Below, piece by piece: positions 1 to 16,091 of a stretch of DNA of 16,353 bases. Origin of the DNA: Oligoflexales bacterium (GTDB taxonomy: Bacteria; Bdellovibrionota_B; Oligoflexia; Oligoflexales; Bog-1112). The DNA lies in assembly GCA_045105515.1 (NCBI GenBank), contig JBGCDR010000120.1, forward strand, positions 1 through 16,353. Reading direction: 5' to 3'. The position numbers and the translations under genes are program-made. Positions within the stretch are counted from its first letter, which is position 1; each line of letters starts with the position of its first letter. The notes beneath the pieces are model-generated. The model had not been told where the DNA came from and ran no database searches. It saw only the letters and a list, made by a program, of their open reading frames with translations.

Positions 1-136
1 AGTCAATTAAGTCATCTTGAAGCTAGTCAATTAAGTCATCTTGAAGCTAGTCAATTAAGTCATCTTGAAGCTAGTCAATTAAGTCATCTTGAAGCTAGTC
101 AATTAAGTCATCTTGAAGCTAGTCAATTAAGTCATC
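1..136. repeat. 24-bp tandem repeat (AGTCAATTAAGTCATCTTGAAGCT), 5 perfect copies plus a partial sixth, running off the left edge
   Basis: Identical units start at 1, 25, 49, 73 and 97. The sixth starts at 121 and diverges after AGTCAATTAAGTCATC. There are no unique spacers. Confidence 0.97.
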
Positions 137-158
137 CCGAAGCCTGTCGAGGGATCTC
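131..158 (+). repeat. REP-like palindromic element GTCATCCCGAAGCCTGTCGAGGGATCTC (GTCA/CGTC-headed type)
   Basis: An ATCCC...GGGAT stem follows a GTC head and ends in a GATCTC tail. It lies about 30 bp beyond the stop codon of the glutathione peroxidase gene. Confidence 0.6.
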
Positions 159-189
159 CCGCTGACAAAAAGCAGGTTCAAGCAAAAAC

Positions 190-738
190 CTACGATCCAG
201 CCTTCACCAACCTTTCTATATCTTGCAGTACGTTTGGATCATTAGGCTTGATTGAGGAAGGATAATGCTTTACCACCTTCCCACTGGCATCCACTAAGAA
301 TTTCTCAAAATTCCAGTTTACTCCACTCTTCTTGGGCGAATTGCTGGTCAAATATTTGTAGATGGGATCAATGTTCTTACCCTTAACATGTACCTTCTTA
401 AATATGGTAAAGTCCACTCCGTAGTTTCGCTTACAGAATTCTCCTATTTTTACGCCAGCAAGAGGTTCTTGGTTAAAATCGTTAGATGGAAAGCCGACGA
501 CTTCAAAGGCAGCTTTTTTATACTTTGTATGTAGGGTTTGCAGGCCCTTGAGCTGAGGGGTATACCCGCACTTGGAGGCGATGTTAGCCACCAGCAATAC
601 CTTTCCCTTGAACTGTTTAAAGTCAATTTTTTTACGTTCGATAGTTTCAGCTTTAAAGCCATGGAAGGACCCCTTAGCCATCAGCGGACTTGTCATCATT
701 GCAATCATGATGCTTACAGTACCGATTTTCTTTAGCAT
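190..738 (-). CDS. gpx: Glutathione peroxidase family protein (Cys-type, probably thioredoxin-dependent) with an N-terminal signal peptide
   Basis: GPx motifs GKVLLVANIASKCGYTPQ (TGC Cys codon, not Sec), VVGFPSNDFNQEP and WNFEKFLVD; second Cys in FCKRNYG. The N-terminus MLKKIGTVSIMIAMMTSPLMA is basic then hydrophobic. An AGGAG SD-like motif lies upstream. Confidence 0.93.
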   Translation of the reverse strand: MLKKIGTVSIMIAMMTSPLMAKGSFHGFKAETIERKKIDFKQFKGKVLLVANIASKCGYTPQLKGLQTLHTKYKKAAFEVVGFPSNDFNQEPLAGVKIGEFCKRNYGVDFTIFKKVHVKGKNIDPIYKYLTSNSPKKSGVNWNFEKFLVDASGKVVKHYPSSIKPNDPNVLQDIERLVKAGS

Positions 739-1225
739 ACTTCCTGCTCCTCTAGTTTAGTTTAAAGATTACCTTGGGTGAGAATTTGCCTTATCATAGC
801 ACTTTAGGGATTGGTCAATATAGAACATTTGTTTTAAAAAGGTGTGTGCTAGTTTTCGTGGATGTTGTGTTCTTTGCCTAAGGATTTTTAATGCCCTTGA
901 TTTGCACAGCGGTATTAGCTATGAATGCATAGCTGGATGCCATTCATTATGTGTCGTATGGATTTTACAAAAAATTCAAATTTGACGACGCTCTAAAATC
1001 AGAGATTGCAATACCAAAGTGAAGGAAAATAGTTGAATTATTGTCCTTTCATCCAGCTTTTGAGAAACTACTTTCAATTTCTGGTCACTACAAATGAAAA
1101 TGGCAGGAATAAAATAAAACAATATTTTAAGTAATTTATTGAAAAAGCTAGCCATGTTTTTTGTGTCGAGAAAGGAGATGAGCCAACTTTTTTAAGCGTT
1201 TGGTCAGACACCTTTACCCCAGCAG

Positions 1226-1820
1226 ATGATACTTCTGAGCAGCAACTCTACTCCGAAACCTTCAAACCACGTCGATCACGACCACCAAAAACCCTATTTC
1301 ATGCTCAAGCCACTTCTGAGTACCTTTGAGCAAGAGCAGGACCTAGATAAAGTAAAGTTACGTGCTAAGCAAGCAAAAAAGCAGCTTGATTCTACCTTGA
1401 AATCGACTAAAGAGATGATGCGAATATTCAGGATGCGAGCTTAGAACAATCCTTGAGGTCTAAGCCTGAATGCCTTAGTCCCCTGCTTAAGGAATGCCTT
1501 GAAGAAAAATTTCTTACGAGTGATCTTGAATTTGCATTTTCCAATGATCTCAAGCATCAAAAGCTTCTAGATATAGACCGAGAAAAGGTAAAGCGGGTCA
1601 TTAATAATGCCTTACAAAACATCCTCACGGCAGTGGACCCAGATGCAAACATCCAGATTCACTTTTCATCCTCCAGGAGGATGGTGAGCTGTAAGGAATT
1701 GGACTCAAGGCTAAAAAATAAAGAGCAGAACAGAAAAATTTTTTTTCATTGTTGCCATATGAAGTGGAAGAAAGTCCCTGTAACTTGCACCTGATGTTTT
1801 ATGCCTCAGGGAGGCTAAGA
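1226..1820 (+). pseudogene. Degenerate sensor histidine kinase remnant (HisKA plus partial HATPase)
   Basis: ORF 1226..1444 has an H-box-like HDHQKPYFMLKPLL followed by a helical segment. Frame +1 is open from 1411 and continues as ANIQDAS...PECLSPLLKECLEE...DLKHQKLLDIDREKVKRVINNALQN (N-box-like), so one frameshift between 1411 and 1441 joins them. The G1/F/G2 boxes are eroded. Boundaries are approximate. Confidence 0.55.
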
Positions 1821-1990
1821 AGCCACATAGAACTATTTATCTTCACATTGAGTTGATTATCGAGGCAAAATAAATTTAGAAAAGCGGGTATGGACTTCAT
1901 CTCCGAAAAGCCCGTCTACTATGAGCAATTGTTGAAGTTTTCTAAATGAGGGTATATTTGATAGGATTTCAATGCTAAACACTGTCGTGT

Positions 1991-2158
1991 CTAATTTGAT
2001 CCACCACCTCCGTGATCTTCACAACTATCTTCATTTTGTTTGATTCCATTGTCAGTTTCTTGGTTTTGCAGGGATCCAGTATCAGCCAAAATTTTAGTTG
2101 GTTGAGAGGTCCAAGTTGTTAACACTGCTAGAATTATTAATGCTTTCAATATTCTCAT
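1991..2158 (-). CDS. 55-aa putative secreted peptide: signal peptide, acidic mature region, Gly-rich C-terminus HGGGGSN
   Basis: The ATG at 2158 lies 19 nt after the stop of the upstream gene and is preceded by AAAGGGTATACAG (SD-like). MRILKALIILAVLTTWTSQPTKILA looks like a Sec signal. The longer 85-aa call overlaps the upstream gene and is less likely. Confidence 0.6.
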   Translation of the reverse strand: MRILKALIILAVLTTWTSQPTKILADTGSLQNQETDNGIKQNEDSCEDHGGGGSN

Positions 2159-2177
2159 CTGTATACCCTTTGCGAAC

Positions 2178-2957
2178 TTAATTAGAAAAACTATCAAAAC
2201 ACACAGTAGCGAAAACGGGAATATCCCCTTTATTGGCTTCATTGTCAATCAGTTCATTCACTTTTTGAACATATTCTTTGTGCAAATCATCGAGGTTTTT
2301 TAGAGTCTGCCCGTTTACGTTCTGGTAATATAATCCAATGTATTTGCTTTGCTTTGTATCAGTATTTACCGAATAAAATCTTTTAATTATCTCTGTAATG
2401 TGAGCATGAGTAAGTCTCGTAGAAACTCTGGGAAAAGCGCCCATTTTTCCCAATAAAAGGTCGTTTTCCTCAAAGATTATACCACTCTCTATGAGGTTAT
2501 TAATCTTGTAGTGCATTTTTGGGAAAACGCATTTTTCGATGATGGACCTTTTAGTGCCCCCAGGAATTGAGGATAAGATAAATATAATAAAAGTATCAAA
2601 GTCTTCTAAAAGCTCATCTAGTTCAGGATTAGTCTCGATTTTCTGGTTGGCTGCAAAGTCACACTGATAATCTGCACCAAATGCTTTAAGCAAAAGACTG
2701 CGAATCTCTTCACTGGAATTATCGATAGTTTCTTTTAAGGTGTCAGAAGCTGTCAAAAACTTTGCAAGTAACAAAACTTGGGAAAAATCTAGGGATGATG
2801 CCTTGCTATCCTCATCACTGAGGATTTTGCTGAGGAAGTAACGGTTCACATTAGAGCGTTTGGCAATAGCCCGGATCGAGAGGTTAGGCCTCTTTTCGCG
2901 ATAATCTTCTAGCTTATTGCGCAAAGCTATGATTACGTCTGAAACCTCTTGACTCAT
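2178..2957 (-). CDS. TIGR02147/DUF4423-like protein: N-terminal HTH, central winged helix, C-terminal alpha/beta domain; putative transcription regulator
   Basis: The N-terminal LEDYREKRPNLSIRAIAKRSNVNRYFLSKIL is an HTH-like pattern. The central IIEKCVFPKMHYKINNLIESGIIFEEND is wHTH-like. The C-terminus (VNGQTLKNLDDLHKEYVQKVNELID...PVFATVCFDSF) and the 259-aa length fit the family layout as I recall it. Confidence 0.62.
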   Translation of the reverse strand: MSQEVSDVIIALRNKLEDYREKRPNLSIRAIAKRSNVNRYFLSKILSDEDSKASSLDFSQVLLLAKFLTASDTLKETIDNSSEEIRSLLLKAFGADYQCDFAANQKIETNPELDELLEDFDTFIIFILSSIPGGTKRSIIEKCVFPKMHYKINNLIESGIIFEENDLLLGKMGAFPRVSTRLTHAHITEIIKRFYSVNTDTKQSKYIGLYYQNVNGQTLKNLDDLHKEYVQKVNELIDNEANKGDIPVFATVCFDSFSN

Positions 2958-3164
2958 GCCGAAACTGTTCCCTAGATTTAATATTTGTCAATTATTTTAG
3001 CTGGATAAGACGATTGGCGTCTACTCTGTACCCAAGGCGAGGATCAATAATCAAGCATTTTGTCGTATTTTTCAAGTGTAAACAATGAGAGAAGCTTTTA
3101 GCGGTGCTTATCGTTGGTAAATTTTTTCCAGATTGTGCTTGGTGCAAAAAAATAGAACGTGTGA

Positions 3165-3557
3165 GACCTCTCCACTCGCTTCGCTCGGTCGTGGTGACGG
3201 GTAATTTGAGGGGGGACTTCTCCATGCGCTTCGCTCGGTCGTGGTGACGGGTAATTTGAGGGGGGACTTCTCCATACGCTTCGCTCGGTCGTGGTGACGG
3301 GTAATTTGAGGGGGGACTTCTCCATACGCTTCGCTCGGTCGTGGTGACGGGTGATTTGAGGGGGGACTTCTCCATACGCTTCGCTCGGTCGTGGTGACGG
3401 ATGATTTGAGGGGGGACCTCTCCACTCGCTTTGCTCAGTCGAGGTGACTGGGGATTTGAGGGGGACCACTCCACGAATGATGAGATGACAGAAGTTGGTC
3501 GAGGTAACGAGGGGTTTGAGGAAGTTCTCTCCATGAGCTTCGCTCGGTCTAAGTGAG
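3165..3557. repeat. 50-bp tandem array of REP-like hairpin units: 5 near-identical, 1 moderately diverged and 2 degenerate copies
   Basis: Units start at 3165, 3215, 3265, 3315, 3365 and 3415, with consensus GACTTCTCCATACGCTTCGCTCGGTCGTGGTGACGGGTAATTTGAGGGGG. Degenerate copies lie at about 3464 (with an internal replacement/insertion) and about 3523. The minus-strand core reads CGTCACCACGACCGAGCGAAGCGTATGGAGAAGTC. Confidence 0.95.
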
Positions 3558-3560
3558 AGA

Positions 3561-4751
3561 CTAGATAAACGTCAAAAAGATCTGAATCACCAGGGCATTG
3601 GCAATATCGATAAAAAATGCCCCGACTATCAGTACAATAAACATCCCGTAGGGGGAAGGTCCATAGCGATTGGTTACGGACTCAATGTTAGCTAATGCAG
3701 TTGGGGTAGCTCCTAAGCCAAAACCACAGTGCCCACTGACAATGGTAGCTGCCTGGTAGTCTTTACCAAGGAGCCTAAAGGTCACATGGATGGTGTAGAG
3801 GATGATGCAGAAGGTCTGAACCCCAATGATTACGAACAAGGGGATTGCCATATCAAGAAGTTGCCAAAGCTTTAAACTCATCATAGCTATGGATAAGAAC
3901 AAAGATAAGGAAATCATATTCACCAAGTCGAGGCTCTGTTGCTGGAATTGCATCTTCTTTGACAACTCAAAGACGTTGGTGATGATAATTCCAATAAATA
4001 AGACGCTGATAAATGAAGGAATTGTAAGGCCTAAAGTGACCAAATATTTGGTAAGTTCAGATCCAAGGAATATTGCCGCAAAAGAAGAAAGCAAAACCTG
4101 CAAAATTGAAGAGGTGGTTACCAATTCAGGTTCGTTAAAACCGTGCTCTTTTAAAGCTCCATCTGGGTTGTTAACCTTATCCTCAGGAGCAAGTTTATGC
4201 TTGGATATTAGCCATTCAGAAACAGGTCCACCAATGATACCCCCTAGTACTAATCCCATGGTTGCACAGGCCATCGCAACTTCTAAGGCTCCATCAATGT
4301 GAGTAAACTTGGTAGCATAAGATGCTCCGGTTCCATGACCTCCTGATAAGGTAATAGAGCTAGCAAGCATGCCAAGGTGAGGATCTACTCCAAGGAGATG
4401 GGATAAACCTACTCCGATAAAATTTTGAATAAACAGATAGGCGACACAAACCAAAAAGAAAATCATCAGCTTTGAACCTCCTTTCTTAAACAGTGAGAAC
4501 TTTGCATTCATTCCCACGGTAGCAAAAAAGGTGAGCATTAAATCGTCACGAATCTCGTTATCAAGGCTCAGGTTTACACCAAAAAATTGATATAAAACCG
4601 TTAACACCAAAGCAAATACCAGTCCTCCAATGACCGGTTCAGGGATATTGAATTTTTTAAATGTATAAACCATTGAGTGGAGGAAGGTTCCGAGAAAGAA
4701 AACACACATTGCGAGGAGCAAGGTTTGTGCTTGATTCAATACTATGTCCAT
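3561..4751 (-). CDS. gltS: Sodium/glutamate symporter (GltS/ESS family)
   Basis: Motifs KFNIPEPVIGGL, LMLTFFATVG, SITLSGGHGTGASY, AMACATMGLVLGGIIGGPV, GHCGFGLGATPTALAN and VGAFFIDIANA. Multi-pass hydrophobic protein with an AGGAGA SD upstream. Confidence 0.95.
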   Translation of the reverse strand: MDIVLNQAQTLLLAMCVFFLGTFLHSMVYTFKKFNIPEPVIGGLVFALVLTVLYQFFGVNLSLDNEIRDDLMLTFFATVGMNAKFSLFKKGGSKLMIFFLVCVAYLFIQNFIGVGLSHLLGVDPHLGMLASSITLSGGHGTGASYATKFTHIDGALEVAMACATMGLVLGGIIGGPVSEWLISKHKLAPEDKVNNPDGALKEHGFNEPELVTTSSILQVLLSSFAAIFLGSELTKYLVTLGLTIPSFISVLFIGIIITNVFELSKKMQFQQQSLDLVNMISLSLFLSIAMMSLKLWQLLDMAIPLFVIIGVQTFCIILYTIHVTFRLLGKDYQAATIVSGHCGFGLGATPTALANIESVTNRYGPSPYGMFIVLIVGAFFIDIANALVIQIFLTFI

Positions 4752-4844
4752 AGGCAGTCTCCTGTCTTATCTATCTTAATACATTGACAATTTTTGGAAA
4801 AATTAGACAATCTTGTGAAAGTACGAATCTACAGCTTGGGAGTT

Positions 4845-7709
4845 TTAGGACGTGGTCAATGCCTCTAGTAAATATCTACCAGTATAGCTTTTCTTAACTT
4901 TTACAAGCTTTTCAGGGCTACCAGTTCCGATAATCTGACCGCCTTTTTCTCCACCTTCTGGACCTAGATCGATAATCCAATCAACGGTTTTAATCACATC
5001 TAGGTTATGTTCAATCAGAAGAATGGTGTTGCCCTTATCCACTAAGCTTTGTAGTACTTCCAATAACTTTCGAATATCTTCAAAATGTAAGCCTGTCGTT
5101 GGCTCATCAAGAATGTATAAGGTTTTTCCTGTATCCTTTTTTGCGAGTTCTTTTGCAAGTTTTATCCTTTGCGCTTCACCTCCCGACAAGCTAGTTGCTG
5201 ACTGGCCCAGCTTGATATAATCCAGACCCACTGCCATCAGGGTATCTAGTATGCTGGTGATAGTCCGATGATTGGTAAACAATTCCCTTGCCTTTCTTAC
5301 TGAAAGGTCGAGGACATCCGCAATCGAGTGGCCTTTATAGTTAATTTCTAAGGTTTGTTCGTTAAAACGTTGACCTTTGCAGTCTTCACATGGAACAAAC
5401 ACATCCGCTAGAAAGTGCATTTCTACCCGCACATAGCCATCACCTTTGCAGGTTTCGCAGCGGCCGCCTTTTACGTTAAACGAGAAACGTCCCTTAGAGT
5501 ATCCGCGCATCTTCGACTCTGGCAATGCAGCAAAGACATCCCGGATGGGTTCGAAGACCTTAACATAGGTTGCAGGGTTAGAGCGAGGAGTTCGTCCGAT
5601 AGCTTGCTGCGTGATGTGAATGACCTTGTCCAATAAGTCGTAGCCTTCAACGCCCTCATGCTGTCCTACCCTAAGCTGCGCACCCATTAGCTGGTTTGCA
5701 AGAAAGGGATGAATGATGTCTCCCACCAAGGTAGACTTGCCAGCGCCTGATACACCCGTAATACAATTAAGTAAGCCTAAGGGGATTTCAACGGTAATTT
5801 CTTTTAGGTTGTGCTCACTAGCGCCACTGATCATCAGCATAGAATTTTTATTCGGTTTGCGGCGTTTGGCAGGGATGGGGATATCTAAGCCACCACTCAA
5901 ATACTTGCCTGTGAGCGAATTTTTATTTTTGTAGATCTGTTTGGGAGTGCCCTCAGCGACCACTTCTCCCCCCAATAAACCTGCTCCTGGGCCAATGTCT
6001 ACGACCCAATCACTACGATCAATGGTTTCCCGGTCATGTTCAACCACTATGAGTGAATTGCCCAGATCCCGTAAGTGCAAGAGGGTATTGAGTAAACGCG
6101 TATTATCCCTCTGGTGCAAGCCGATTGAGGGTTCATCTAGGATGTAGATGACGCCAGTGAGTTCACTACCAATCTGTGACGCTAAGCGAATACGCTGTGC
6201 CTCTCCTCCTGAAAGAGATGGTCCGTAGCGATCAAGGGAAAGGTAGTTAAGGCCTACATTTAATAGGAAGCCTAACCTAGACATAATTTCTTTAATCAGC
6301 TCCCCAGCAATGATTAACTGTTGTTTATTCCATTTAATCTTTGAGAGAAAGGCATGAGCCTCTTCAATGGTGAGTGAACAAACATCCATAATAGAATGCT
6401 CGTCAATGTAGACGTGCAAAAGGTCTTGTTGGAGGCGTTTACCTTCACATGCGTCACAGTCCAGTCGGGACATAAAGCGTGCATACTTGTTCTTCATGAT
6501 ATCAGAAGAAGTTTGTTGGTAACGGCGCATAAGCCGGTTCACTAGGCCTTCTTCCTCACTTTTCCAAGAACCACTGCCTTTTTGTGAATTCCACTTGATG
6601 ACTAGCTGTCGGTCTTTTTCAGTCTTGGGTCCGTAGAGAATCCAATCGCGCATTTTTTTTGACAGTTTTTTCCATGGGGTATCAAGGTTGAGCTTCCATT
6701 GCTTTTGCATTGCTTGGATGCGCCGACGTCCCCATGACTCTTTATTGTCTTCTTTTTCGAAAAAGCTTTGCCAAGGAATGACAGCTCCATCGCGGATACT
6801 CAAGCTTTGGTCGAGTACGATCTTTGCAGCATCCATTTTTAAGATGCTACCCAAGCCCTGGCAACTAACACACATGCCTTGAGGAGAATTAAAGGAAAAA
6901 TGTGAAGGCTCTAAATCTCTGTAAGCGGTATTGCAGCAGGTGCGTTTTTCGCTCATAGTGTGATCTTTTTTCTCTGCAATTCGGTGGATAATGATCTCAC
7001 CTTTGCCAAGTTTCAAAGCTGTTTCTACTGAGTCAGATATGCGTTTTTTGAAGGCCACTCCAGACTTAATGACGAGCCGGTCAATCACAGCCTCTATGGT
7101 GTGCTTTTTGTTTTTTGCGAGTGCCTGAACTTGATCGATTTCTTGTACTACACCATTTAGGCGAATTCTGATGATGCCTTGGGCTTTTAGGCCCGACAGT
7201 ATGTCTTTGTGCTCGCCTTTGCGATTATCAATCAGCTTTGCTAATACTAGAATCTTTTCATTAAGTCCCATGTTCAGGATATGCTTCACCATGCTAGCAG
7301 CATTACCTACGCCAACTTGCTTTCCGCAATGGATGCAGTGTTGGGTGCCTAGGCGAGCGAAGAGGACGCGAAGGTAGTCATAGACCTCTGTTATGGTTCC
7401 TACCGTTGAACGGGGGTTTTTGCTTGCTGATTTTTGCTCGATAGCAATGGTGGGAGAAAGGCCACGAATCGTATCAAAGTTGGGTTTTTCCATAAGACCG
7501 AGGAATTGCCTGGCATAAGAGGATAGCGATTCTACATAGCGACGTTGGCCTTCAGCATAAATCGTATCAAAGGCTAAGCTTGATTTACCTGATCCAGAAA
7601 CCCCTGTAAAAACAACGAGTTTGTTCTTAGGTATCATTAGTTCAACGTTTTTTAAGTTGTGTTCTCTTGCTCCTTTAACGAGCAATTTCCCTTTGAGATT
7701 GGAATCCAT
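4845..7709 (-). CDS. uvrA: Excinuclease ABC subunit A
   Basis: GAREHNLKN, Walker A motifs GVSGSGKSSLAFDTIYAEGQRRY and GVSGAGKST, two LSGGEAQRI signatures, FSFNVKGGRCETCKGDG zinc finger, LYILDEPTTGLH; 954 aa. Confidence 0.99.
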   Translation of the reverse strand: MDSNLKGKLLVKGAREHNLKNVELMIPKNKLVVFTGVSGSGKSSLAFDTIYAEGQRRYVESLSSYARQFLGLMEKPNFDTIRGLSPTIAIEQKSASKNPRSTVGTITEVYDYLRVLFARLGTQHCIHCGKQVGVGNAASMVKHILNMGLNEKILVLAKLIDNRKGEHKDILSGLKAQGIIRIRLNGVVQEIDQVQALAKNKKHTIEAVIDRLVIKSGVAFKKRISDSVETALKLGKGEIIIHRIAEKKDHTMSEKRTCCNTAYRDLEPSHFSFNSPQGMCVSCQGLGSILKMDAAKIVLDQSLSIRDGAVIPWQSFFEKEDNKESWGRRRIQAMQKQWKLNLDTPWKKLSKKMRDWILYGPKTEKDRQLVIKWNSQKGSGSWKSEEEGLVNRLMRRYQQTSSDIMKNKYARFMSRLDCDACEGKRLQQDLLHVYIDEHSIMDVCSLTIEEAHAFLSKIKWNKQQLIIAGELIKEIMSRLGFLLNVGLNYLSLDRYGPSLSGGEAQRIRLASQIGSELTGVIYILDEPSIGLHQRDNTRLLNTLLHLRDLGNSLIVVEHDRETIDRSDWVVDIGPGAGLLGGEVVAEGTPKQIYKNKNSLTGKYLSGGLDIPIPAKRRKPNKNSMLMISGASEHNLKEITVEIPLGLLNCITGVSGAGKSTLVGDIIHPFLANQLMGAQLRVGQHEGVEGYDLLDKVIHITQQAIGRTPRSNPATYVKVFEPIRDVFAALPESKMRGYSKGRFSFNVKGGRCETCKGDGYVRVEMHFLADVFVPCEDCKGQRFNEQTLEINYKGHSIADVLDLSVRKARELFTNHRTITSILDTLMAVGLDYIKLGQSATSLSGGEAQRIKLAKELAKKDTGKTLYILDEPTTGLHFEDIRKLLEVLQSLVDKGNTILLIEHNLDVIKTVDWIIDLGPEGGEKGGQIIGTGSPEKLVKVKKSYTGRYLLEALTTS

Positions 7710-7726
7710 GGCGTTTCCTATTTGCT

Positions 7727-7777
7727 ATTTTGCTTTTTTCTCATACATAATAATGAAACAGATGAGAATAGCAAAAT
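7727..7777 (-). promoter_or_regulatory. Putative sigma70-type promoter of uvrA (TTGCTA-N16-TATTAT) embedded in an imperfect inverted repeat
   Basis: The minus strand reads ATTTTGCTATTCTCATCTGTTTCATTATTATGTATGAGAAAAAAGCAAAAT, ending about 17 nt before the uvrA ATG. The arms are ATTTTGCT..TTCTCAT and ATGAGAA.AGCAAAAT. Confidence 0.35.
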
Positions 7778-8176
7778 CCTCTTAATGTTCGGCGAGTTGG
7801 GCGAGAACTTATCCTCAAATATCCTGTTTTGCTAGCATGATCATAGTTACTGCGAAAATTAAATGATATTTATACCCACCTAGATATCCCGTGAATAAAT
7901 AAGTGTAAAATTAATTATAAAAGTTAATGCTAAACTCTATGTCCTCTCCTTCCGAAAAGCTTAAATATGGAGGGTTCTAGTTGGCAGAATCCAAGGAAAA
8001 GGACTTATAGTTACCAGAAGGAGTGCAAAGTAATGTTGCAGCAACAAGGTTTATCTACATCTCATGTATTGACCAAGTATGAGCGTGAACCTTATGGGGT
8101 TTATGAAGAGGGAATCGTTGTTAAGCTCTTGATGGCATTAACAATTTGTACCTGTACTTAAGCAGCTTTTGCAAGC

Positions 8177-8212
8177 GTTCTCGGCCTTTTTGCTATGGGC
8201 TTTACCGAGAAC
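8177..8212 (-). terminator. Hairpin downstream of the amino-acid dehydrogenase gene, possible terminator or 3' stabiliser
   Basis: GTTCTCGG (8177-8184) and CCGAGAAC (8205-8212) form a perfect 8-bp inverted repeat about 40 nt after the stop. The loop is long and there is no clean adjacent U tract. Confidence 0.3.
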
Positions 8213-8249
8213 TTCAGCTCAGTAATTGGTTTTCTTCCTTAAACATTTT

Positions 8250-9377
8250 TCACCCTGAGGCCTGCTTTCGATGCTTAGGAGAGATCCAGCTTTGGTTGTC
8301 GTAGGTATTGGTTAATTTTCTGTCTCCCTGCTTTTTTTGCTCCGAAATGATAGATTGAGCATATATATTGCTGGCTTCCAGGGTTGAGATCTGTTTTTTA
8401 TTAGCTTCCCTAAAGATATCTAGCAGTGCATCGTAGATTTTTTCTGCATCTGCTTTTGCTGCCGATTCGTTGTATCCCTTTAGTTCATGGCTGACGTTGA
8501 TAAGCCCTCCAGCATTGATGACGTAATCGGGAGCGTACAGGATCTGTTTTTCTTCAATCATCTGCATATGTTTGTTTTCGTCGAGCAGTTGGTTGTTGGC
8601 AGCTCCAGCAATAATGCCTGCCTTAATTTCGGGAATTGTTTTATCATTTAGACTTGCGCCAAGGGCACAAGGTGCATAAATGTCCACTTCCTGGCTATGA
8701 ATTTCTTCAAGTGGGACCACTTGTGCTCCAAAATTTTTTTGTATTTTTTTCAGAGCAGCTTCGTTTATATCAGAAATAAACAACTTAGCACCATGTTCAT
8801 GTAGCATCTCACACAGGTTTCCACCAACGGATCCTATGCCTTGAACAGCAACCTTCACGCCTTTTAAATCAGTTTTTTGATATTTGAATTGCATGCATGC
8901 ATTGATTCCTTGGAAAACCCCGTAAGCAGTCACTGGGGATGGGTTACCTGAGCCACCTTCTTGCATGCTTTTACCGGTAACATAGTTAGTTTCACTGGCA
9001 ATATGACCGATATCTTCTTCATTCATATTTACATCTTCAGCGGTAATGTAGCGACCATTTAAGCTTTGTATAAATCTGCCAAAGCGTTTAAATAAAAGAG
9101 GGTTCTTGAGTTTTTTAGGGTCTCCCATAATGACTGCTTTGCCACCCCCTAAACTGAGTCCAGCCACCGCTGCTTTATAGGTCATACCCCGAGATAAACG
9201 CAGTACATCAAAGACAGCTTCATCTTCATTACCATAGTTCCAGAAACGACAACCTCCCAAAGCTGGTCCCAATGTTGTATCATGGATAGCTATGATTGCC
9301 TGCAGTTCCGTTTCTGTATCTTGGCAAAACACCACTTGCTCATGACCCAATTTTTTTATCATCTCCGAGATAACCAT
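8250..9377 (-). CDS. ldh: Leucine dehydrogenase (Glu/Leu/Phe/Val dehydrogenase family)
   Basis: HEQVVFCQD, IIAIHDTTLGPALGGCR, LRLSRGMTYK, LGGGKAVI, YITAEDV, SGNPSPVTAYGV, Rossmann VAVQGIGSVG, APCALG, AGAANNQL, YAPDYVINAGGLI. Confidence 0.9.
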   Translation of the reverse strand: MVISEMIKKLGHEQVVFCQDTETELQAIIAIHDTTLGPALGGCRFWNYGNEDEAVFDVLRLSRGMTYKAAVAGLSLGGGKAVIMGDPKKLKNPLLFKRFGRFIQSLNGRYITAEDVNMNEEDIGHIASETNYVTGKSMQEGGSGNPSPVTAYGVFQGINACMQFKYQKTDLKGVKVAVQGIGSVGGNLCEMLHEHGAKLFISDINEAALKKIQKNFGAQVVPLEEIHSQEVDIYAPCALGASLNDKTIPEIKAGIIAGAANNQLLDENKHMQMIEEKQILYAPDYVINAGGLINVSHELKGYNESAAKADAEKIYDALLDIFREANKKQISTLEASNIYAQSIISEQKKQGDRKLTNTYDNQSWISPKHRKQASG

Positions 9378-9673
9378 AAAAAAATATCCTTATGCTGCGA
9401 TTCTTCTCTGGTGTGTGAGTCTTTTCTAAAGGTTTAAGATCCGACAACACCTTAAAGAATATGACCGTGAAACGAGCGAATTCTAATTGAGTATAGGCTG
9501 TAATGTGTTAATAAAAAAACCAAAAAGAGCAGCCTCTTTACCAGGAGGGTCCCGATTTTCTTCTTTATAGAGCAGCTTTAGAGAGGTGCAAACATAGTTG
9601 ACTTAGCGATTGTTAGCTTGTTACTTTAATGCCTTATTTGTCCTTGAACTGCTTCAATTGTAAGGGAGAAACA

Positions 9674-10951
9674 TTGCAGACATTAAACAGGTTTTTGAGA
9701 GTCCTAGGACCTGGTTTACTCTATGCAGGTGCAGCGATTGGTGTTTCTCATATTGTTCAGTCCACGAGGGCAGGTGCTTCTTATGGGTTTCAACTTGTGT
9801 GGGTAATTATCCTTGCGAATCTTCTTAAGTACCCTTTCTTTGAGCTCGGTCCTCGCTTCGCTGCCGTCACCGGTAAGAGTCTTCTTGAAGGCTACGAGTC
9901 TTTGGGTAGGTGGGCGCTTCCTCTGTTTTTGCTCATGACCATGGCTTCGATGTTTATTACCATAGCTGCAATAACCCTCGTTACTGCAGGGATTTTTCAA
10001 AGTATCTTTAATCTTCCATATAGCACTGTGGTTTGGTGTTTTGTTACTCTTGGTGTAAGTGTTTCGATTCTCTTGAACGGTCACTATGCTGTCTTGGATC
10101 GGATTACTAAGTTCGTTGTTTTGCTCTTGAGTTTAACCACTCTTACAGCAGTAATTTTAGTATTTAGTAAACAGAGTAATTTTGACTTTAAACACTCCAA
10201 TCAATTCGTATTTCATAATAAGGATGATTTGTTTTTTCTTCTTGCTTTTATGGGATGGATGCCTGCTCCCATAGAGATTTCTGTTTGGCACTCACTTTGG
10301 ACTTTAGAGAATAAGAAATTAAAGAATGATAAAATTTCATTAAAGGAAGTGCTCACTGACTTCAATGTGGGCTTTTGGGGTACTATTATCTTAGCCTTGG
10401 CTTTTGTTAGTCTCGGAGCTTGTCTGATGTATCCAACAGGTATCCGTTTTTCCCCGCAAGCAATCCCATTTTCTGAGCAGTTTATCGGCCTATATACCAA
10501 AAGTATCGGTGATTGGACTTATCCAATCGTCGCTTTTTCAGCCTTAGCGACAATGTTTAGTACAATGCTTACTTGTCTCGATGCGTACCCGCGGGTGACT
10601 GCTAGTGCAATGAATTTGTGGATAGGAAAATGGCTTGAGCAACAGGAAAATCGGAGTGCTTCTTTGTTGCTGACCTACCGTTTTTGGATGGGAGTCATTG
10701 TCTTAGGTTCCGGATTCAATTTATTGTTCCTTACAAATAATATGAAAACTCTTGTAGACTTTGCAACTTTTGTTGCTTTTATCTTTGCTCCAGTACTTGC
10801 TGGGATGAACCTAATGTGTGCCCACAAACATCGTCTTAAATGGCAACAACTAACAAGGCCTTTTTGGCTTGTTGCATTAAGTCATGTAGGCATGGTTTAT
10901 CTCGTTGGGTTTAGTCTCTACTTCATACTGATCCAATTTATTACTTTGTAA
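9674..10951 (+). CDS. NRAMP-related (APC-superfamily) membrane transporter, substrate uncertain
   Basis: LGPGLLYAGAAIGVSHIVQSTRAGASYG, LKYPFFELGPRF, MGWMPAPIEISVWHSLW, ATMFSTMLTCLDAYPR; many TM segments. The start is moved to the in-frame TTG at 9674 because AAGGGAG (SD) precedes it. Confidence 0.8.
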   Translation: MQTLNRFLRVLGPGLLYAGAAIGVSHIVQSTRAGASYGFQLVWVIILANLLKYPFFELGPRFAAVTGKSLLEGYESLGRWALPLFLLMTMASMFITIAAITLVTAGIFQSIFNLPYSTVVWCFVTLGVSVSILLNGHYAVLDRITKFVVLLLSLTTLTAVILVFSKQSNFDFKHSNQFVFHNKDDLFFLLAFMGWMPAPIEISVWHSLWTLENKKLKNDKISLKEVLTDFNVGFWGTIILALAFVSLGACLMYPTGIRFSPQAIPFSEQFIGLYTKSIGDWTYPIVAFSALATMFSTMLTCLDAYPRVTASAMNLWIGKWLEQQENRSASLLLTYRFWMGVIVLGSGFNLLFLTNNMKTLVDFATFVAFIFAPVLAGMNLMCAHKHRLKWQQLTRPFWLVALSHVGMVYLVGFSLYFILIQFITL

Positions 10952-10975
10952 GGTGCTCAGGTTTTTAGTATTCAT

Positions 10976-12031
10976 TTAGGCAAAAAGAGAGTCATCAATC
11001 AACTCAATTTTTTTTCGCGAAGGTGCGAACGTTTTAATGAGGCTCTCTAGTTGGTCGTCGCCTAGCAAGAGCTTATTTTGGATCATTTTTAGAGCTTCAT
11101 CGTTAATTTCATGGGGCTTTAGGCGGACCCAATGATCAATGATTGTTGCCAATTCGATGCATTCAAAAATATGAAGCTTTTTTGAATTAGAAGGTAATGG
11201 ATGCCTGTCGCGAAAGTAGTGGAACATATTTGCTAAGTTTTGGGGTAAGCCCCACATGGCGACTGCAACCTCTCCAAGCACATACTCGTTAGGTAAACCC
11301 AAAAAATTGGCAGTTTCATTCCAGCTGGTTTCGACCTTAGGCCTGGACATTAGCATCACAAGCTCATCAACCTTTTCTGGAAAACATATGGCAGCTAGTA
11401 ACTTGCCAATATTAACAAAGCAGCCGAGGAGGTAAGGATGTGTCGGTTCATTTTTGTTGTCGTCCTCAAAGCCGTAGCGAGCAAACACTTCCCGAGCAGC
11501 CTGACCAATCATAAGTGCGCGTTTCCAGTGAGCACTTACACGGTAGGTTTTTGTTTTTAAAGGAAGATTTACCAAAGATGCTGATAGTAAGATTCCAGAT
11601 AAGGTGTTGCGTCCTAGCAGAGCAACGGCATGTTCAATGTCAGTAAGTTCACTCCCTTGCTGAGCCATGCCAGATGCAATTTTCAGGGTAAGGAGGGCTA
11701 ATCCTGGAGACTGCTCCAGCTCATCTTTAATTGTTCGGAAAGTGCTGCTGGGGTCTTCAATTACCTTCTGGAGGTTCATGATCCGGGTGTGGATGCAAGG
11801 GATCTTATTGGATAAGTCGTTTTGCGAATATACTTTTCGGGCTTCGTGTCCCATGAGTAAGGTTGGAGAAAACCAATCAAAGTCACCAGCTTGAATAAAG
11901 AAAGTGGATCCACAGGGACAGTTGAACCAGAGGTTTCTGTCTTCGCATACTCTAATTCTATTACCGCGGTTCACAATGTCATTATTTGTCGCGAACTGGG
12001 TACCGCATGATTTACACTGAACCATAGACAC
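10976..12031 (-). CDS. HDOD-domain signalling protein with a Cys-rich (putative Zn-binding) N-terminal extension
   Basis: HDOD pattern: IP...LQKVIEDPSSTFRTIKDELEQSPGLALLTLKIAS, DIEHAVALLG, HWKRA, YLLGCFVNIGKL, LGEVAVAMWGLP. The N-terminus has CKSC...C...WFNCPCGST. Confidence 0.8.
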   Translation of the reverse strand: MSMVQCKSCGTQFATNNDIVNRGNRIRVCEDRNLWFNCPCGSTFFIQAGDFDWFSPTLLMGHEARKVYSQNDLSNKIPCIHTRIMNLQKVIEDPSSTFRTIKDELEQSPGLALLTLKIASGMAQQGSELTDIEHAVALLGRNTLSGILLSASLVNLPLKTKTYRVSAHWKRALMIGQAAREVFARYGFEDDNKNEPTHPYLLGCFVNIGKLLAAICFPEKVDELVMLMSRPKVETSWNETANFLGLPNEYVLGEVAVAMWGLPQNLANMFHYFRDRHPLPSNSKKLHIFECIELATIIDHWVRLKPHEINDEALKMIQNKLLLGDDQLESLIKTFAPSRKKIELIDDSLFA

Positions 12032-12074
12032 CTTACCGTAGCTTGTTACTAGATTGTTTATGTTTCATTATAGC

Positions 12075-12917
12075 TCAAACATCGTCAGCGTTCTGTTTTA
12101 CAGTGCTTTTAAAACTATATTTTCGGCTTAAAATTGGGTTGCTATTGCCTTGAATTATGAAAATGCGTTTAGCTCGTTTGATTTCTTGGGAGCTAGGAGG
12201 GTAACTGCGATCCCATGCTTCAAACAGTTTGGTATTCTTGCGAGAAATAATGCCATGACCAGGATAGGCATGTTGCATATACTGATAGGTGCGGGCGATA
12301 AACCCCTTAACTTGATCGCGGGGCTCAATCATTCCAGCACCAATTCGGGTATTACAGTTACCAAAACTAAGGGACTCTCCAGTTAAAATCCCCATGGGTA
12401 GGTTACTGCGACGCATGTTAACTTCACCAATCGCAGGCACTAAATTGTAAAGATCTGATTCCATAAGCTTGAATTTAGAAGACGCTTTGCGAGCGCATTT
12501 CCGGCCCTTATATTTTTTTCCTTTGGAGTTTATGCAGTCCGGATGCCCTTTGCGCCATGACACAAAAGAACGGCCAAAATCGTATGCTGGGACAACATGC
12601 TCCCACTCAACTCGGTAGGAACGTTCATCTTCTTGAATTGGTTTAAAACCGCAGGAATGATGATTCACCACTTTGTCTTTGAAGCTGCATCCGCAATAGA
12701 ATGTTGTTTCCATGCCTTTATAGAGTTCATGAGCTTTCTTTTTTGCCTGATAGAAGCTTTTTATCGTTTTATTACCTGCTTGCGAATTATTCAGTGTTTT
12801 AGGTTTGTCATTTTGTCCTGTGAACTTTATTAAATTAGGTTCGAGGACTCTAACATAGACAACGATTCCTAATATCATTGCAAAAAGGGCTGCAGTCATT
12901 GTCTTGGGATTATGCAC
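12075..12917 (-). CDS. endA: Endonuclease I family (EndA/Dns/Vvn-like) exported DNase with an N-terminal membrane anchor or signal
   Basis: TFYCGC, RVEWEHVVPA, GRKCA, MESDLYNLVPAIGEVNMRRSN, EPRDQVKGFIARTYQYM, LFEAWDRSYP. The likely start is GTG at 12917, 5 nt after a perfect TAAGGAGG SD. Confidence 0.9.
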   Translation of the reverse strand: MHNPKTMTAALFAMILGIVVYVRVLEPNLIKFTGQNDKPKTLNNSQAGNKTIKSFYQAKKKAHELYKGMETTFYCGCSFKDKVVNHHSCGFKPIQEDERSYRVEWEHVVPAYDFGRSFVSWRKGHPDCINSKGKKYKGRKCARKASSKFKLMESDLYNLVPAIGEVNMRRSNLPMGILTGESLSFGNCNTRIGAGMIEPRDQVKGFIARTYQYMQHAYPGHGIISRKNTKLFEAWDRSYPPSSQEIKRAKRIFIIQGNSNPILSRKYSFKSTVKQNADDV

Positions 12918-13043
12918 ACGAACCTCCTTAGAAACTTTACAGGGCATTATATAGCCGCAGATATTAAAACTCTAAATATATTACGGCAAGACTATCAGAA
13001 ATGCAGTGTGCTATACTGGCAAAAAAAGATAAGTGAGGGCACT

Positions 13044-13465
13044 ATGAAATTTCTCTTTCCTCTTGAGATCGCGCTGATAGATGATGAGCCTGATATTGTT
13101 GAAATGACTAATATGGCAGTGTCTCGCGCTTTGAAGAGTTTACCCCTCTTTGTTTTAGTGATGGGGCAGAGGCACTCAAAGTGATTGAGGAAAGAAAAGT
13201 CAGAGTTATCTGCACTGACCTTTTAATGCCTGGTACCGATGGTCAGGATATTATTGATGCGTGCAAGAATTTCTCGTGGAACACTGACATCATTGTAATG
13301 ACAGGTATTGCTAACATCGAGAGAGCATTCAAGTGCTTTGACTCTGGAGCATGGGAAGTCTTATTAAAGCCAGTTGATCTTTCAAGAATTTGTGCTGCCC
13401 TTAACCGAGTGGTAGATCGCTATCAGCTTTGGCATGCGACTTGCGATAGGCTGGGTATTGAATAA
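13044..13465 (+). pseudogene. Single-domain response regulator (receiver) interrupted by a 1-nt frameshift near 13130; recent pseudogene or sequencing error
   Basis: ATG 13044 follows GAGGG and gives MKFLFPLEIALIDDEPDIVEM...VSRA. The -1 frame continues FEEFTPLCFSDGAEALKVIEERKVRVICTDLLMPGTDG...IIVMTG...LLKPVD. The span is 422 nt, so one added base gives an intact 140-aa receiver. Confidence 0.85.
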
Positions 13466-13472
13466 AAGCTTC

Positions 13473-14186
13473 TTAAAGTGCATTCAAACCATTTTGGCTA
13501 CGTTTCTGATATAAACGATTTGTAAGCAGTAAAACAAAAGATAGGACCAATGAGACTAAGGCCAAGGTCCAAGCTTCGGTATCTCTGCCATTAATTGTGC
13601 GAGCGTAAATGGCAAGAGAAAGAGTTTCAGTTTGCCCAGGGATCAGTCCTGCTACCATAATAGTCGAACCAAATTCGCCTAAAGACCTTGCTACTGCAAG
13701 AACGCAGCCGTTGGTGATGCCAGGTAAAGCAAGAGGAATCGTAACTTGAGTGAAGGTTTGACGCTTGGTTAAACCGAAAGACTTTGCAAGCTCCTCTAGG
13801 CTGTCGGGGATTTGCGCAAATGATTGTTGGCAGGCTCGCATTAATAGCGGGAAGCTTACAAATGCAGCAGCGACCACAGCAGCTTTCCAGTTGAGCAGTA
13901 AATTTATGCCAAAGTACTTGAAGAGTAAGCCTCCCAGTATTCCTTCGGGAGATAGGATAGTTAGCAGGAGTAGGCCACAGCTAGAAGGCGGCAAGACCAT
14001 AGGCAGAAGTAATATGGCTTCGCCGATGCTTACCAAAGGGCCTTTTTTATGAGAGAGCCACCACCCTATTGAAATGCCAGGGGCTAGAATTGAAAGTAAT
14101 GCACACAAGCTTACTTTCAAAGAAAGTAGGCTGATCGAACTTAGCTCATTGATAGGCAACCTGTGACCCAGCCCCTCTAAAGCCAT
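13473..14186 (-). CDS. modB: Molybdate ABC transporter permease
   Basis: LSLKVS, LLPMVLPPS, WKAAVVAAAFVSFPLL, EAA-like loop LEELAKSFG, VTIPLALPGI, ARSLGEFGSTIMVAGLIPGQTETL. It overlaps the end of modA; the exact start is uncertain. Confidence 0.92.
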   Translation of the reverse strand: MALEGLGHRLPINELSSISLLSLKVSLCALLSILAPGISIGWWLSHKKGPLVSIGEAILLLPMVLPPSSCGLLLLTILSPEGILGGLLFKYFGINLLLNWKAAVVAAAFVSFPLLMRACQQSFAQIPDSLEELAKSFGLTKRQTFTQVTIPLALPGITNGCVLAVARSLGEFGSTIMVAGLIPGQTETLSLAIYARTINGRDTEAWTLALVSLVLSFVLLLTNRLYQKRSQNGLNAL

Positions 14187-14952
14187 GTTTACTAAAGATA
14201 GCTTGCCCCTGTGATGAACCCAAAAAGTCCAAATAAGAATTTGCGATATTTCGTAAATCCTTACCTGAACGTGTTAGAATCAAACCAAGATATTCAATAG
14301 GAGGATGATCTTTTGGAGAGGCTTCTTTGATCACTTTAACTCTCTTGGAATCGGAAAATGCATCAGTAAGGTACACAAAACCATATGTAGTTGTTTTGTT
14401 TGCTACCATTCCTAATATACTCCTAGCATGGTCAGTATAAACAAACTTTGGTTTAAACTGTTCGAACAGGCCAAGATGACGCAAATAGTTTTGTGCATAA
14501 AAGCCTATAGGGACTGCTATATCGCACATGGCTATTTTCACGTTAGCAGTTTTTACTATCTTTTCTAGGCTTATATTCTGCAACTTATTTTCAATAGAGC
14601 TGACAAGTACTAAGCGATTAGAAGCAATTGATTTTAGGCTCTTTTTTATTCCAAGCTGGATTCTAATGATTTCATCTGCTGGTTCCCTAGCGGCAGAAAT
14701 AAAGATATCAAGGGGAGCACCCCATTTGATTTGTCTAATGAGGGTCGAGGTTCCAGCAAAATTGTAGGTGGGCTTTGCTGTTACTCCTGAGCTTTTCACC
14801 CAGGATTCACCTACTTCTTTCAGTACATCTTGAAGCGAAGCTGCAGCACCTATGTTTAGCTGATCCTGAGCAGCTTCGAGATTGGTGCCAAACAATGCTA
14901 AAAAATTACATACTATTAGTAGGATGATGACAATTTTACCCAGCATAAACAT
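14146..14952 (-). CDS. modA: Molybdate ABC transporter substrate-binding protein
   Basis: Signal peptide, then AAASLQDVL, NFAGTSTLIRQIKWGAPLDIFISA, IASNRLVLV, VPIGFYA, GFVYLTDA and HPPIEY. Confidence 0.92.
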   Translation of the reverse strand: MFMLGKIVIILLIVCNFLALFGTNLEAAQDQLNIGAAASLQDVLKEVGESWVKSSGVTAKPTYNFAGTSTLIRQIKWGAPLDIFISAAREPADEIIRIQLGIKKSLKSIASNRLVLVSSIENKLQNISLEKIVKTANVKIAMCDIAVPIGFYAQNYLRHLGLFEQFKPKFVYTDHARSILGMVANKTTTYGFVYLTDAFSDSKRVKVIKEASPKDHPPIEYLGLILTRSGKDLRNIANSYLDFLGSSQGQAIFSKHGFRGAGSQVAYQ

Positions 14953-15025
14953 TAGACCCTTTACTAAGCCAAGCTTAAGTATAGTCCTAATACTATATTG
15001 GAGTTATTTTTACAAAGCGAAAAGC

Positions 15026-15712
15026 TTAGACAGCAATGAGTCTGGGAATTACTTCTTGGACGCTTTTTTCTATCAAGCCTCCATGTCCAATGATAATCCG
15101 GTCAATCTTCCACTGTTCGAGTTTTCTAATTGCTTCGTTATATTTCTGCTTGTCCCTAATAAAATATCTAAATAGCCTGGATTGAGATGGTTTGCTCCCA
15201 TCGATTCCCATAATTGGAAATAGCAGTTTATGCCAAAAACCTTGATTCTTTTTTAAATTAAATAAGAGGTCGCTGGCAATGAGTGTGCACGATGCCTTAT
15301 GATAAAACACATATTCATTAACAAAAGGCATTCCAGTGATAGCCAGGATTTCTAACTCATCAGACCATGCAGGCTTACTGTCGAAGCTTAGTGCACTGCT
15401 ATTTTTGATCTTAGAAATCATTTTAGGTTTTTTCTTCTCAAGGCCTGGAGCATAGAAATAATGTGCGTCAGAAAATTTGTCCATGAAATATTCTGCATAG
15501 AGATGGTGAAAAGTATTTGGAGAGACAACGGAATTTACTGGACCGAGTGAATCCAAATGCCTGATGAGCTCGTCGCTTGGCTCAATAGGGGAATGAATCC
15601 AAAGTGAATGGTCTTGCAAGCGAATAATGGTCATGACGGTCCCAAAATCTATTCCGAGTAGATTCAATGGTTGTCTAACTATCCATAAATTATCATGAAG
15701 ATATTCAAGCAT
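15026..15712 (-). CDS. DUF4336 family protein (metallo-beta-lactamase-like fold)
   Basis: MTIIRLQDHSLWIHSPI, LGPVNSVVSPNTFHHLY, EYVFYHKASCTLIASDLLFN, IIIGHG. The likely start is ATG at 15712, preceded by GGGAG, rather than 15820. Confidence 0.85.
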   Translation of the reverse strand: MLEYLHDNLWIVRQPLNLLGIDFGTVMTIIRLQDHSLWIHSPIEPSDELIRHLDSLGPVNSVVSPNTFHHLYAEYFMDKFSDAHYFYAPGLEKKKPKMISKIKNSSALSFDSKPAWSDELEILAITGMPFVNEYVFYHKASCTLIASDLLFNLKKNQGFWHKLLFPIMGIDGSKPSQSRLFRYFIRDKQKYNEAIRKLEQWKIDRIIIGHGGLIEKSVQEVIPRLIAV

Positions 15713-16091
15713 GGATTGCTCCCAGCTAGTGTGACAGATCAGATATTTCCTAGGGGGAAATACGTAGGCTTTAAAAACTGTTTCATTACTATAGGCTACA
15801 TAGTTCCTGTATTGAGCCAATAAAGCAAGTCATAAGTTGAAAATCTAAAAAAGAACTGTTGCTGAAGGGATAATAACCATAGGATCATATAGTTGAAACT
15901 CCGATCACGCTTCCTTTTTAGCTTTAACAAGAAATTGTTCCACCTGCATTTTATATTTACATAAGAATGCAAAAATTAAGAGTTTCTATAACTATTATTT
16001 TATTTTCATGGACTTGGTTTTAAAAAATAATAATTTCTAAAGAAAAATTGTTCTAATCCGAAGGGTCTGCAGATTGTTTGGGATTTGAACG

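Follow-up and report, generated by a model that had tools for sequence, protein, structure and literature searches.

A helix-turn-helix regulator gene and a gene for a small, predicted exported Gly-tailed peptide form a conserved cassette in one family of Oligoflexales

Peptide-based circuits built from a regulator and a propeptide are textbook knowledge for Firmicutes and their phages, and we know of none that is established in Gram-negative bacteria. The closest described systems are the RRNPP pairs (PlcR-PapR, Rap-Phr, NprR-NprX, AimR-AimP and ComR-ComS), and these are compared here with a two-gene cassette from an Oligoflexales metagenome-assembled genome (MAG), found on a stretch of 16,353 nucleotides (positions 1–16,353 of GenBank contig JBGCDR010000120.1), the whole of which is called the window below. 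The cassette consists of a gene for a 259-amino-acid (aa) helix-turn-helix (HTH) regulator, P0001, and a gene for a 55-aa predicted exported peptide, P0002. As in the RRNPP pairs, an intracellular regulator with a probable N-terminal XRE-type HTH stands beside a predicted Sec-type pre-peptide with a conserved short C-terminus, and an oligopeptide-type binding protein is encoded near some of the cassette loci. The differences lie in the lineage, which is Gram-negative, and in the tail of the peptide, which is Gly/His-rich and acidic and does not resemble a short hydrophobic or basic pheromone.

The criteria for RRNPP systems include, in the excerpted text of one description, a small propeptide (10–100 aa), a receptor of 250–500 aa, adjacency of the two genes, Sec secretion and TPR repeats (PMC10075063). 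Three of these five are found in the cassette: a 55-aa propeptide, a 259-aa receptor and genes 19 nt apart. With respect to Sec secretion, a basic N-region, a hydrophobic core and an I-L-A site can be read in the sequence of P0002, which also passes the heuristic on sequence features that was applied to the small open reading frames of its genome. The TPR repeats are absent: in the AlphaFold2 model of P0001, the HTH is followed by a winged HTH and two helices. The original prediction for this locus, made from the sequence of the window alone, had likened its layout to that of RRNPP systems; the likeness holds for peptide size, receptor length and adjacency and fails for the TPR fold, so the cassette is not an RRNPP system. 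Literature searches, with subscription journals outside their coverage, gave only Firmicute systems among the matches listed for RRNPP or propeptide receptors in Gram-negative bacteria and no such cassette among those listed for Oligoflexales or Oligoflexia; the pair was described in none of the matches listed.

The TIGR02147/DUF4423 paralog families of Fibrobacter and Bdellovibrionota form another close comparison. Their members occur in the same phylum, are similar in length to P0001, have an N-terminal HTH followed by a central winged HTH, and often have a gene for an exported protein directly after them. The partners there are lipoproteins of 360–468 aa and not Gly-tailed peptides. The sole mention of TIGR02147/DUF4423 found in the literature is an entry, in the excerpted text of PMC12546842, which lists the DUF4423 protein Bd3700 as upregulated during growth of Bdellovibrio in prey. 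The common habit of a regulator followed by an exported partner offers a lead for these long-uncharacterised paralog families.

A regulator gene and a predicted exported-peptide gene in the window

On the minus strand of the window, P0001 is followed by a 19-nt gap and then by P0002 with a ribosome-binding site of its own (Table 1). This order had been described in the original prediction, and both the positions and the AAGGG motif were confirmed in the sequence. The two genes probably form one operon, because they lie only 19 nt apart, overlap in relatives, and have no predicted terminator between positions 1700 and 3600 of the window. A search of public sequencing runs found no RNA dataset; it listed three DNA runs of a single study, which may represent the source sample.

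Table 1. Positions of the cassette and of the neighbouring operon remnants in the window
Feature	Position	Strand	Basis
Regulator gene P0001, 259 aa	2178..2957	minus	Open reading frame (ORF) and translation
Spacer from regulator stop to peptide start, 19 nt	2159..2177	minus	Sequence reading
Shine-Dalgarno-like AAGGG in the spacer	2166-2170	minus	7 nt before the ATG of the peptide gene
Small predicted exported-peptide gene P0002, 55 aa plus stop	1991..2158	minus	ORF, counterparts in relatives, codon constraint in paralogs
Signal-peptide-like part of P0002, residues 1-25 (MRILK, hydrophobic core, ...KILA)	2084..2158	minus	Sequence reading and heuristic
C-terminal tail of P0002, E-D-H-G-G-G-G-S-N, conserved part of the peptide	1994..2020	minus	Tails compared among relatives
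Decayed remnants of a convergent operon	1090..1940	plus	tblastn of proteins of sister genome G014 (contig C57) onto the window
Remnant of a second family regulator	1090-1229	plus	tblastn
Hybrid histidine kinase fragments	1301-1677, 1761-1847, 1881-1940	plus	tblastn; most of the kinase middle lost

The sequence of P0002 is MRILKALIILAVLTTWTSQPTKILA followed by DTGSLQNQETDNGIKQNEDSCEDHGGGGSN. Its basic start, hydrophobic core and I-L-A site suggest export via Sec. The predicted mature peptide has 30 residues, of which seven are acidic and one is basic, contains one Cys, and ends in the tail EDHGGGGSN. Reading the sequence in this way bore out what the original prediction had said of it: a signal-peptide-like start, an acidic mature part of ∼30 aa, a single Cys and an HGGGGSN end. 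A word-based protein search with P0002 returned no homolog beyond P0002 itself, and a protein-atlas search gave scores of 0.78–0.82 at best. Prediction of a complex between the regulator (19-row alignment) and residues 26–55 of the peptide scored 0.00 in both runs, which were made without controls, and counts neither way for binding, a role that the original prediction had suggested for the C-terminal domain of the regulator.

Some other classes of peptide were considered and rejected. A GlyGly-CTERM or MYXO-CTERM sorting signal would have a transmembrane helix after the glycines, and P0002 has none; a lipoprotein would have a lipobox Cys, which P0002 also lacks. A double-glycine-leader microcin or a thiazole/oxazole peptide was rejected on the Sec-type appearance of the leader and the lack of modification or export genes nearby.

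P0001 is an HTH plus winged-HTH regulator from an unannotated family. Its AlphaFold2 model (predicted local distance difference test score 76.5) has a helical N-domain (residues 3–93), a disordered linker (95–108), a winged helix (111–170), two long helices (180–194 and 216–238) and an unstructured C-terminal tail. The most conserved motif of the family, G-D-I-P-x-F, sits in this unstructured tail, with G244 and F249 conserved. VIA-align matched residues 1–97 to XRE-type domains (the ChiS DNA-binding domain, HigA and lambda cI; Z 6.4–7.4) and residues 106–190 to winged helices of the ArsR/SmtB/MarR type (BigR, SmtB, ArsR, CadC and CzrA; Z 6.0–6.8), all of these matches being under the tool's own advised trust level. 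Foldseek with the model against the PDB gave no match at E ≤ 1e-3, and a family-profile sequence search of solved structures gave nothing usable (best E 0.027). P0001 alone matched the Pfam families HTH_19 (E 0.05) and HTH_31 (E 0.18), both under the cut-offs, and a Pfam scan of 117 family members found HTH_3 in 22, HTH_24 in 14, HTH_26 in 9 and HTH_31 in 7. Model, structural alignment and family-level Pfam matches agree on the HTH and winged HTH that the original prediction had proposed for the 259-aa protein. No TPR family was matched by P0001 in Pfam, and none was present among 25 of the 33 families matched by the 117 members. The 19-sequence alignment of the regulators contains no invariant or nearly invariant Cys or His.

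P0001 is not, in the strict sense, a member of TIGR02147/DUF4423, to which the original prediction had likened it, and is possibly a remote cousin. It had no match at E ≤ 1 in NCBIfam, nor to DUF4423 (Pfam PF14394) at the same threshold; DUF4423 was found in none of the 117 family members at E ≤ 0.01; and P0001 is not among the 12 places in the window's genome where TIGR02147 matches over its cut-off. A shallow family alignment compared by hhalign with seven TIGR02147 paralogs of the same genome gave E 0.24, and a deeper alignment compared with the same seven gave a weak match (E 8e-4, probability 24.6%, 204 collinear columns). The protein-atlas language-model neighbours of P0001 include DUF4423 clusters at 0.92–0.94.

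At four of eight TIGR02147 loci in the window's genome (L004, L006, L007 and L009), a gene for a lipoprotein of 360–468 aa follows at once or overlaps. The four lipoproteins share a similar N-terminus, with a lipobox ...CGT and then GNP, and may be a partner family of TIGR02147.

The regulator family is newly defined here, and its members are tied to genes of small exported products. A word-based search of 5.8 billion proteins found seven relatives of P0001 besides the query, one of them a named Oligoflexales MAG protein. With a 19-member profile against 1.84 billion representatives, 761 clusters (50% identity) were found at E ≤ 1e-3; thresholds of 1e-10 and 1e-30 left 365 and 41, respectively. 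The 761 clusters are nearly all from Bdellovibrionota-like sources and have no Pfam or NCBIfam model. A scan of genome contigs with the family pattern found the sister MAG only, at two loci, and a scan of metagenome contigs gave 476 pattern matches, of which zero were confirmed.

Conservation of the pair

The cassette is a real two-gene unit conserved across one family of the Oligoflexales (Bdellovibrionota), called family f1 here. The window's genome is a 6.29-Mb MAG of 461 contigs (contamination 4.83%), the window lying on contig C120. A profile search covering 131 genomes of the phylum gave full-length strong matches to the regulator in 12 of the 15 other genomes of family f1. At 15 of the 17 full-length loci of the family, the regulator has beside it, on the same strand, a small signal-peptide ORF that carries a Gly-rich stretch, and the pair is present in seven of the eight genera that have an intact regulator. 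The original prediction, for which the lack of a conserved small ORF after homologs would have been a refutation, is not refuted by this result. The 17 loci are those with intact or nearly intact regulators, a further locus with a fragmentary one (L024) having been excluded. The count of 15 was obtained by reading the flanks by eye, and a stricter automated re-extraction recovered 9 of the 15. Weak cases among them are L022, with the tail GPDTYGSGV, L018, in which a long N-region precedes the hydrophobic core, and L043, which has no His. The flanks of the remaining two loci, L020 and L044, contained no such peptide ORF.

The peptide gene lies downstream of the regulator at 10 of the 15 loci and upstream at five. 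The downstream peptides have the tails EDHGGGGSN (L001, the window), CEDAGGGAGGGN (L012), EDHGCGGGNG (L002 and L003), DAGHGFGAG... (L013), CPPYGGGG (L015), HSHGGGCG... (L019), GFGGDIGSNADYGGSSNG (L043) and GQVGVGGGG (L045), together with that of L022 given above. Those encoded upstream, on the same strand, have LHGNGHGF (L014), FHGTGHGA (L016), SHGGGHGVGK (L017), EHGHGHGS (L018, whose start is doubtful) and AHGTGHGV (L021). The tail motif of the family can be written (acidic)-x-H-G-x-G-(H/G/C)-G. The unit H-G-x-G is present in 11 of the 15 peptides, in five of them as H-G-x-G-H-G; His is absent from the Gly stretch in L012, L015, L043 and L045, and the mature L045 peptide has neither His nor Cys. 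Because the pairing survives flips of gene order, selection seems to act on the regulator–peptide pair.

The pre-peptides are 43 to about 85 aa long wherever they occur in the family. This refutes the possibility, raised with the original prediction, that the 55-aa ORF is the truncated part of a longer gene. In the pre-peptides, a predicted Sec-type signal sequence leads into a hydrophilic middle that evolves fast, and a conserved Gly-rich stretch, usually H-G-x-G-(H/G/C)-G, lies at the C-terminus or close to it. A fast-changing middle before a short conserved tail is what would be expected of a pro-peptide whose end is the active part. Comparison with the sister genome G014 is consistent with such a pattern: the peptide genes can no longer be aligned as DNA, although the regulators have 77% identity, and both peptides keep the signal peptide, the acidic middle and a C-E-D-x-G-G-G tail. 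In the direct ortholog, the position of the window's tail His is occupied by Ala.

The window's genome has two paralogs of P0001, with 28–30% identity. Each has a small signal-peptide-like ORF directly downstream, overlapping the end of the regulator gene and with the tail EDHGCGGGNG. Genome-wide, 1183 ORFs of 35–90 aa pass the signal-peptide heuristic and five of these have a Gly/His tail; three of the five adjoin the three family regulators. Comparison of the two paralog copies shows 28 identical, 15 synonymously changed and 10 non-synonymously changed codons among the 53 of the peptide gene, with the tail unchanged, and 131, 89 and 43, respectively, among the 263 of the regulator gene, a ratio about like that of the peptide. 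As a control, eight true TIGR02147 paralog loci were inspected, and a Gly-tailed peptide was found at none of them.

The regulator family also has more distant members in other families of the order, with hmmsearch E values of 1e-20 to 1e-57 against a deep profile. After 15 of 24 of these comes a signal-peptide ORF of 59–187 aa, whose start often overlaps the stop of the regulator gene. Among the 15, the ORF of L039 (187 aa) looks spurious, and the heuristic missed at least two partners that were seen by eye. The base rate, taken from random 220–320 aa ORFs in the window's genome, was 48 of 600 (8%), and in 30 of these the partner was no longer than 90 aa. The difference between 15 of 24 and this base rate argues that a regulator followed by an exported product is a family-wide trait, of which the short His/Gly-tailed peptide is the form found in family f1.

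In several distant members (L025, L026, L027, L032, L034, L037, L040 and L048), the mature part of the secreted partner often begins with a Gly-rich stretch or with G-(D/N)-G-(S/E), examples being SGDGSAI, GGNGSTV, RNGETGIL, GQTGGGGG and GVIGGGGS. The glycine motif is therefore at the opposite end from that of the family f1 peptides.

Possible roles of the cassette

The combination of a conserved regulator with a 30-residue peptide whose H-G-G-G tail is like a copper site suggests an undescribed signalling or metal-handling unit, and leads to two hypotheses for the Oligoflexales branch, a signal or a metal binder. The explanation that we favour, tentatively and at somewhat less than even chances, is an auto-regulated feedback cassette of a regulator and an exported peptide. 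This is the natural reading because HTH regulators usually control their own operon. The regulator would control the operon made of both genes. The peptide would be exported and cleaved to about 30 residues, and its His/Gly tail would be the active part, an extracytoplasmic cue feeding back on the regulator. Such an autoinduction or envelope-feedback loop would have the logic of the Gram-positive regulator/propeptide pairs with a different receptor fold. It is favoured by the conservation of the pair, by the RRNPP-like peptide size, receptor length and adjacency, and by the peptide-type binding proteins and kinases encoded near cassettes of the genus in which the family has expanded. At the paralog loci in the genus of the window's genome, the peptide could be read back via the adjacent family-5 solute-binding protein (SBP) and hybrid histidine kinase. 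At the window locus, because the local kinase has decayed, the peptide would be read by the regulator itself or by factors encoded elsewhere.

Several points weigh against the feedback cassette. Its binding, export, processing and transcription are predicted only, and its receptor has no TPR domain. The SBP and kinase neighbours are limited to a single genus, and no ATP-binding cassette (ABC) permease adjoins the SBP genes. The tails of the paralogous peptides are nearly identical (EDHGGGGSN versus EDHGCGGGNG), which would mean cross-talk in a pheromone system, and in a Gram-negative cell the peptide would reach the periplasm, not the medium. The distant members pair with a secreted protein of 59–187 aa and not with a short peptide, so the principle of the family may be 'regulator plus exported target' and not signalling.

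The last point leads to a plainer explanation, in which P0002 is simply the target of its regulator, a small exported envelope or secreted protein (e.g. predation- or host-related) with no feedback, and the Gly tail is flexible or structural. The varied secreted partners of the distant members, without obvious sequence similarity to the short peptides, speak for it, as do the lipoprotein genes after four of the eight TIGR02147 loci, since an HTH gene followed by one for an exported product may be a habit of the superfamily. We nevertheless think it unlikely: a conserved tail of 6–10 residues on an otherwise freely evolving 30-residue peptide is hard to call structural, the pair survives inversion of gene order, and neighbours of a signalling type (SBP and hybrid kinase) occur in the genus where the family has expanded. 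Far less probable still is that the small ORF is not a gene at all, being a chance frame 3' of the regulator gene. The failure of the word-based search to find homologs and the low atlas scores would fit a chance frame, but not the same three-part design in 15 of 17 relatives, the adjacency of three of the five genome-wide motif matches to the three regulators, the excess of synonymous over non-synonymous changes (15 versus 10) or the ribosome-binding site at the right distance.

Operons joining a regulator and a small metal-binding protein are common, and the cassette might be one of these, although we give this a low probability as well. P0002 would then be a periplasmic or secreted binder of Cu, Ni or Zn, switched by the regulator according to metal status; the His and following glycines would chelate the ion with help from nearby Cys, Asp and Glu, and the family-5 binding proteins at the paralog loci would bind the metal–peptide complex. 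Comparable known systems are ribosomal copper-binding peptides, such as methanobactin with its periplasmic binding protein, and the small His/Gly-rich periplasmic metal proteins of enterobacteria. In common with these, the cassette would have a small ribosomal peptide acting outside the cytoplasm, with a dedicated regulator and a binding protein of the family-5 type at the locus; modification enzymes, a TonB receptor and an ABC permease are lacking beside the cassette. The H-G-G-G unit occurs in HGGGG of the window and in HGGGHG and HGGGCG of relatives, and the same His followed by three Gly is found in the prion octarepeat HGGGW, in which, according to the excerpted text of one study (PMC2663819), the His and the amides of the glycines after it bind Cu(II). 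The prion site is eukaryotic, has four repeats and carries Trp after the glycines, so that this is a chemical analogy only, with no homology. Besides the 11 peptides with H-G-x-G, a metal-binding role is favoured by Cys in or beside the tail in several peptides and by acidic residues before it; against it stand the four of 15 with no His in the Gly stretch, among them L045 with neither His nor Cys, and the Ala of the direct ortholog. The alignment of the winged-HTH domain with ArsR/SmtB-type sensors would also fit, but at Z 6.0–6.8 it is below Z 8 and generic for winged helices, and the regulators have none of the conserved metal-ligand Cys or His of ArsR/SmtB repressors. The best NCBIfam match of one neighbouring SBP is NikA, yet it is very weak (E 1.2e-5; 24 bits, where the cut-off is 393); the SBP matches are far under all curated cut-offs, and no metal transporter is consistently adjacent. 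Among the matches listed in a literature search for ZraP and glycine-rich motifs, none was usable.

If the feedback cassette were taken to its furthest consequence, it would be a founding case of peptide feedback or cell–cell signalling in a Gram-negative phylum of predatory lineage. A non-TPR HTH/winged-HTH family would read a Sec-exported His/Gly peptide, either directly after re-import or via divergent family-5 proteins and hybrid kinases, and the peptide might be loaded with Cu or Ni and so serve as an unmodified metallophore-signal. We regard this extended claim as improbable, somewhat more so than either the metal-binding or the plain-target explanation. The lineage concerned consists of uncultured, host- or prey-associated bacteria in which regulation is almost uncharted.

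Neighbouring genes and paralog loci

The regulator–peptide pair is the only feature constant across the loci. In genus g1, which holds the window's genome (G000) and G014, a divergent SBP_bac_5 gene and/or a hybrid kinase gene adjoins five loci (contigs C329, C28 and C128 of G000; C278 and C57 of G014). In other genera the pair adjoins genes for a class-Ib tRNA synthetase and an SLT/LysM transglycosylase, or heme-synthesis genes. Against NCBIfam, the SBP_bac_5 neighbours gave only the sub-threshold matches described above, which allow no peptide- or nickel-specific typing. At the orthologous locus of G014, two genes that are intact or nearly so are convergent to the peptide gene, one for a second family regulator (L051:419-1093, containing a single TAG in frame) and one for a hybrid histidine kinase (L051:1164-2273, with Pfam HATPase_c and Response_reg); the corresponding remnants in the window are listed in Table 1.

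The other genes of the window encode a glutathione peroxidase, GltS, UvrA, an amino-acid dehydrogenase, an NRAMP-type transporter, an HDOD protein, endonuclease I, a DUF4336 protein and ModAB-like proteins, these last named by eye, and give no functional hint. Between the GltS gene and the upstream region of the regulator, a 50-bp unit is repeated in tandem (positions 3165-3464; 6.0 copies, 94% matches). The repeat is open in three minus-strand frames and so yields spurious ORFs of 105–180 aa, the 180-aa one having no Pfam match.

Candidate operators were seen just upstream of the paralog regulators (L002:2303-2339 and L003:2304-2341), in the form of the palindromes AAAACCAAA/TTTGGT... and ATTTTGGT/ACCAAAAT; no counterpart was found upstream of the window's regulator. 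A fourth locus of similar design, on contig C128 (G000:C128:11650-16470; L066:4958-9870), has on a single strand an HTH-like ORF of 135–166 aa, an 89-aa signal-peptide ORF ending ...TTGGGGGGTGGVCSSE, and then genes for a 533-aa SBP_bac_5 protein, a protein of 297 aa and a hybrid histidine kinase. Its signal-peptide ORF is a fourth of the five with a Gly/His tail in the genome. The small HTH-like ORF matches the family profile weakly (E 0.0041 over 27 columns). On contigs C329 and C28, L064 and L065 are near-duplicate five-gene blocks of a 189-aa ORF, a kinase-like protein of 468–470 aa, the regulator–peptide pair and a convergent SBP_bac_5 gene. Between the two blocks, 132 of the 263 regulator codons are different, 89 of them synonymously; the blocks could have arisen by recent duplication or stem from two strains that were binned together.

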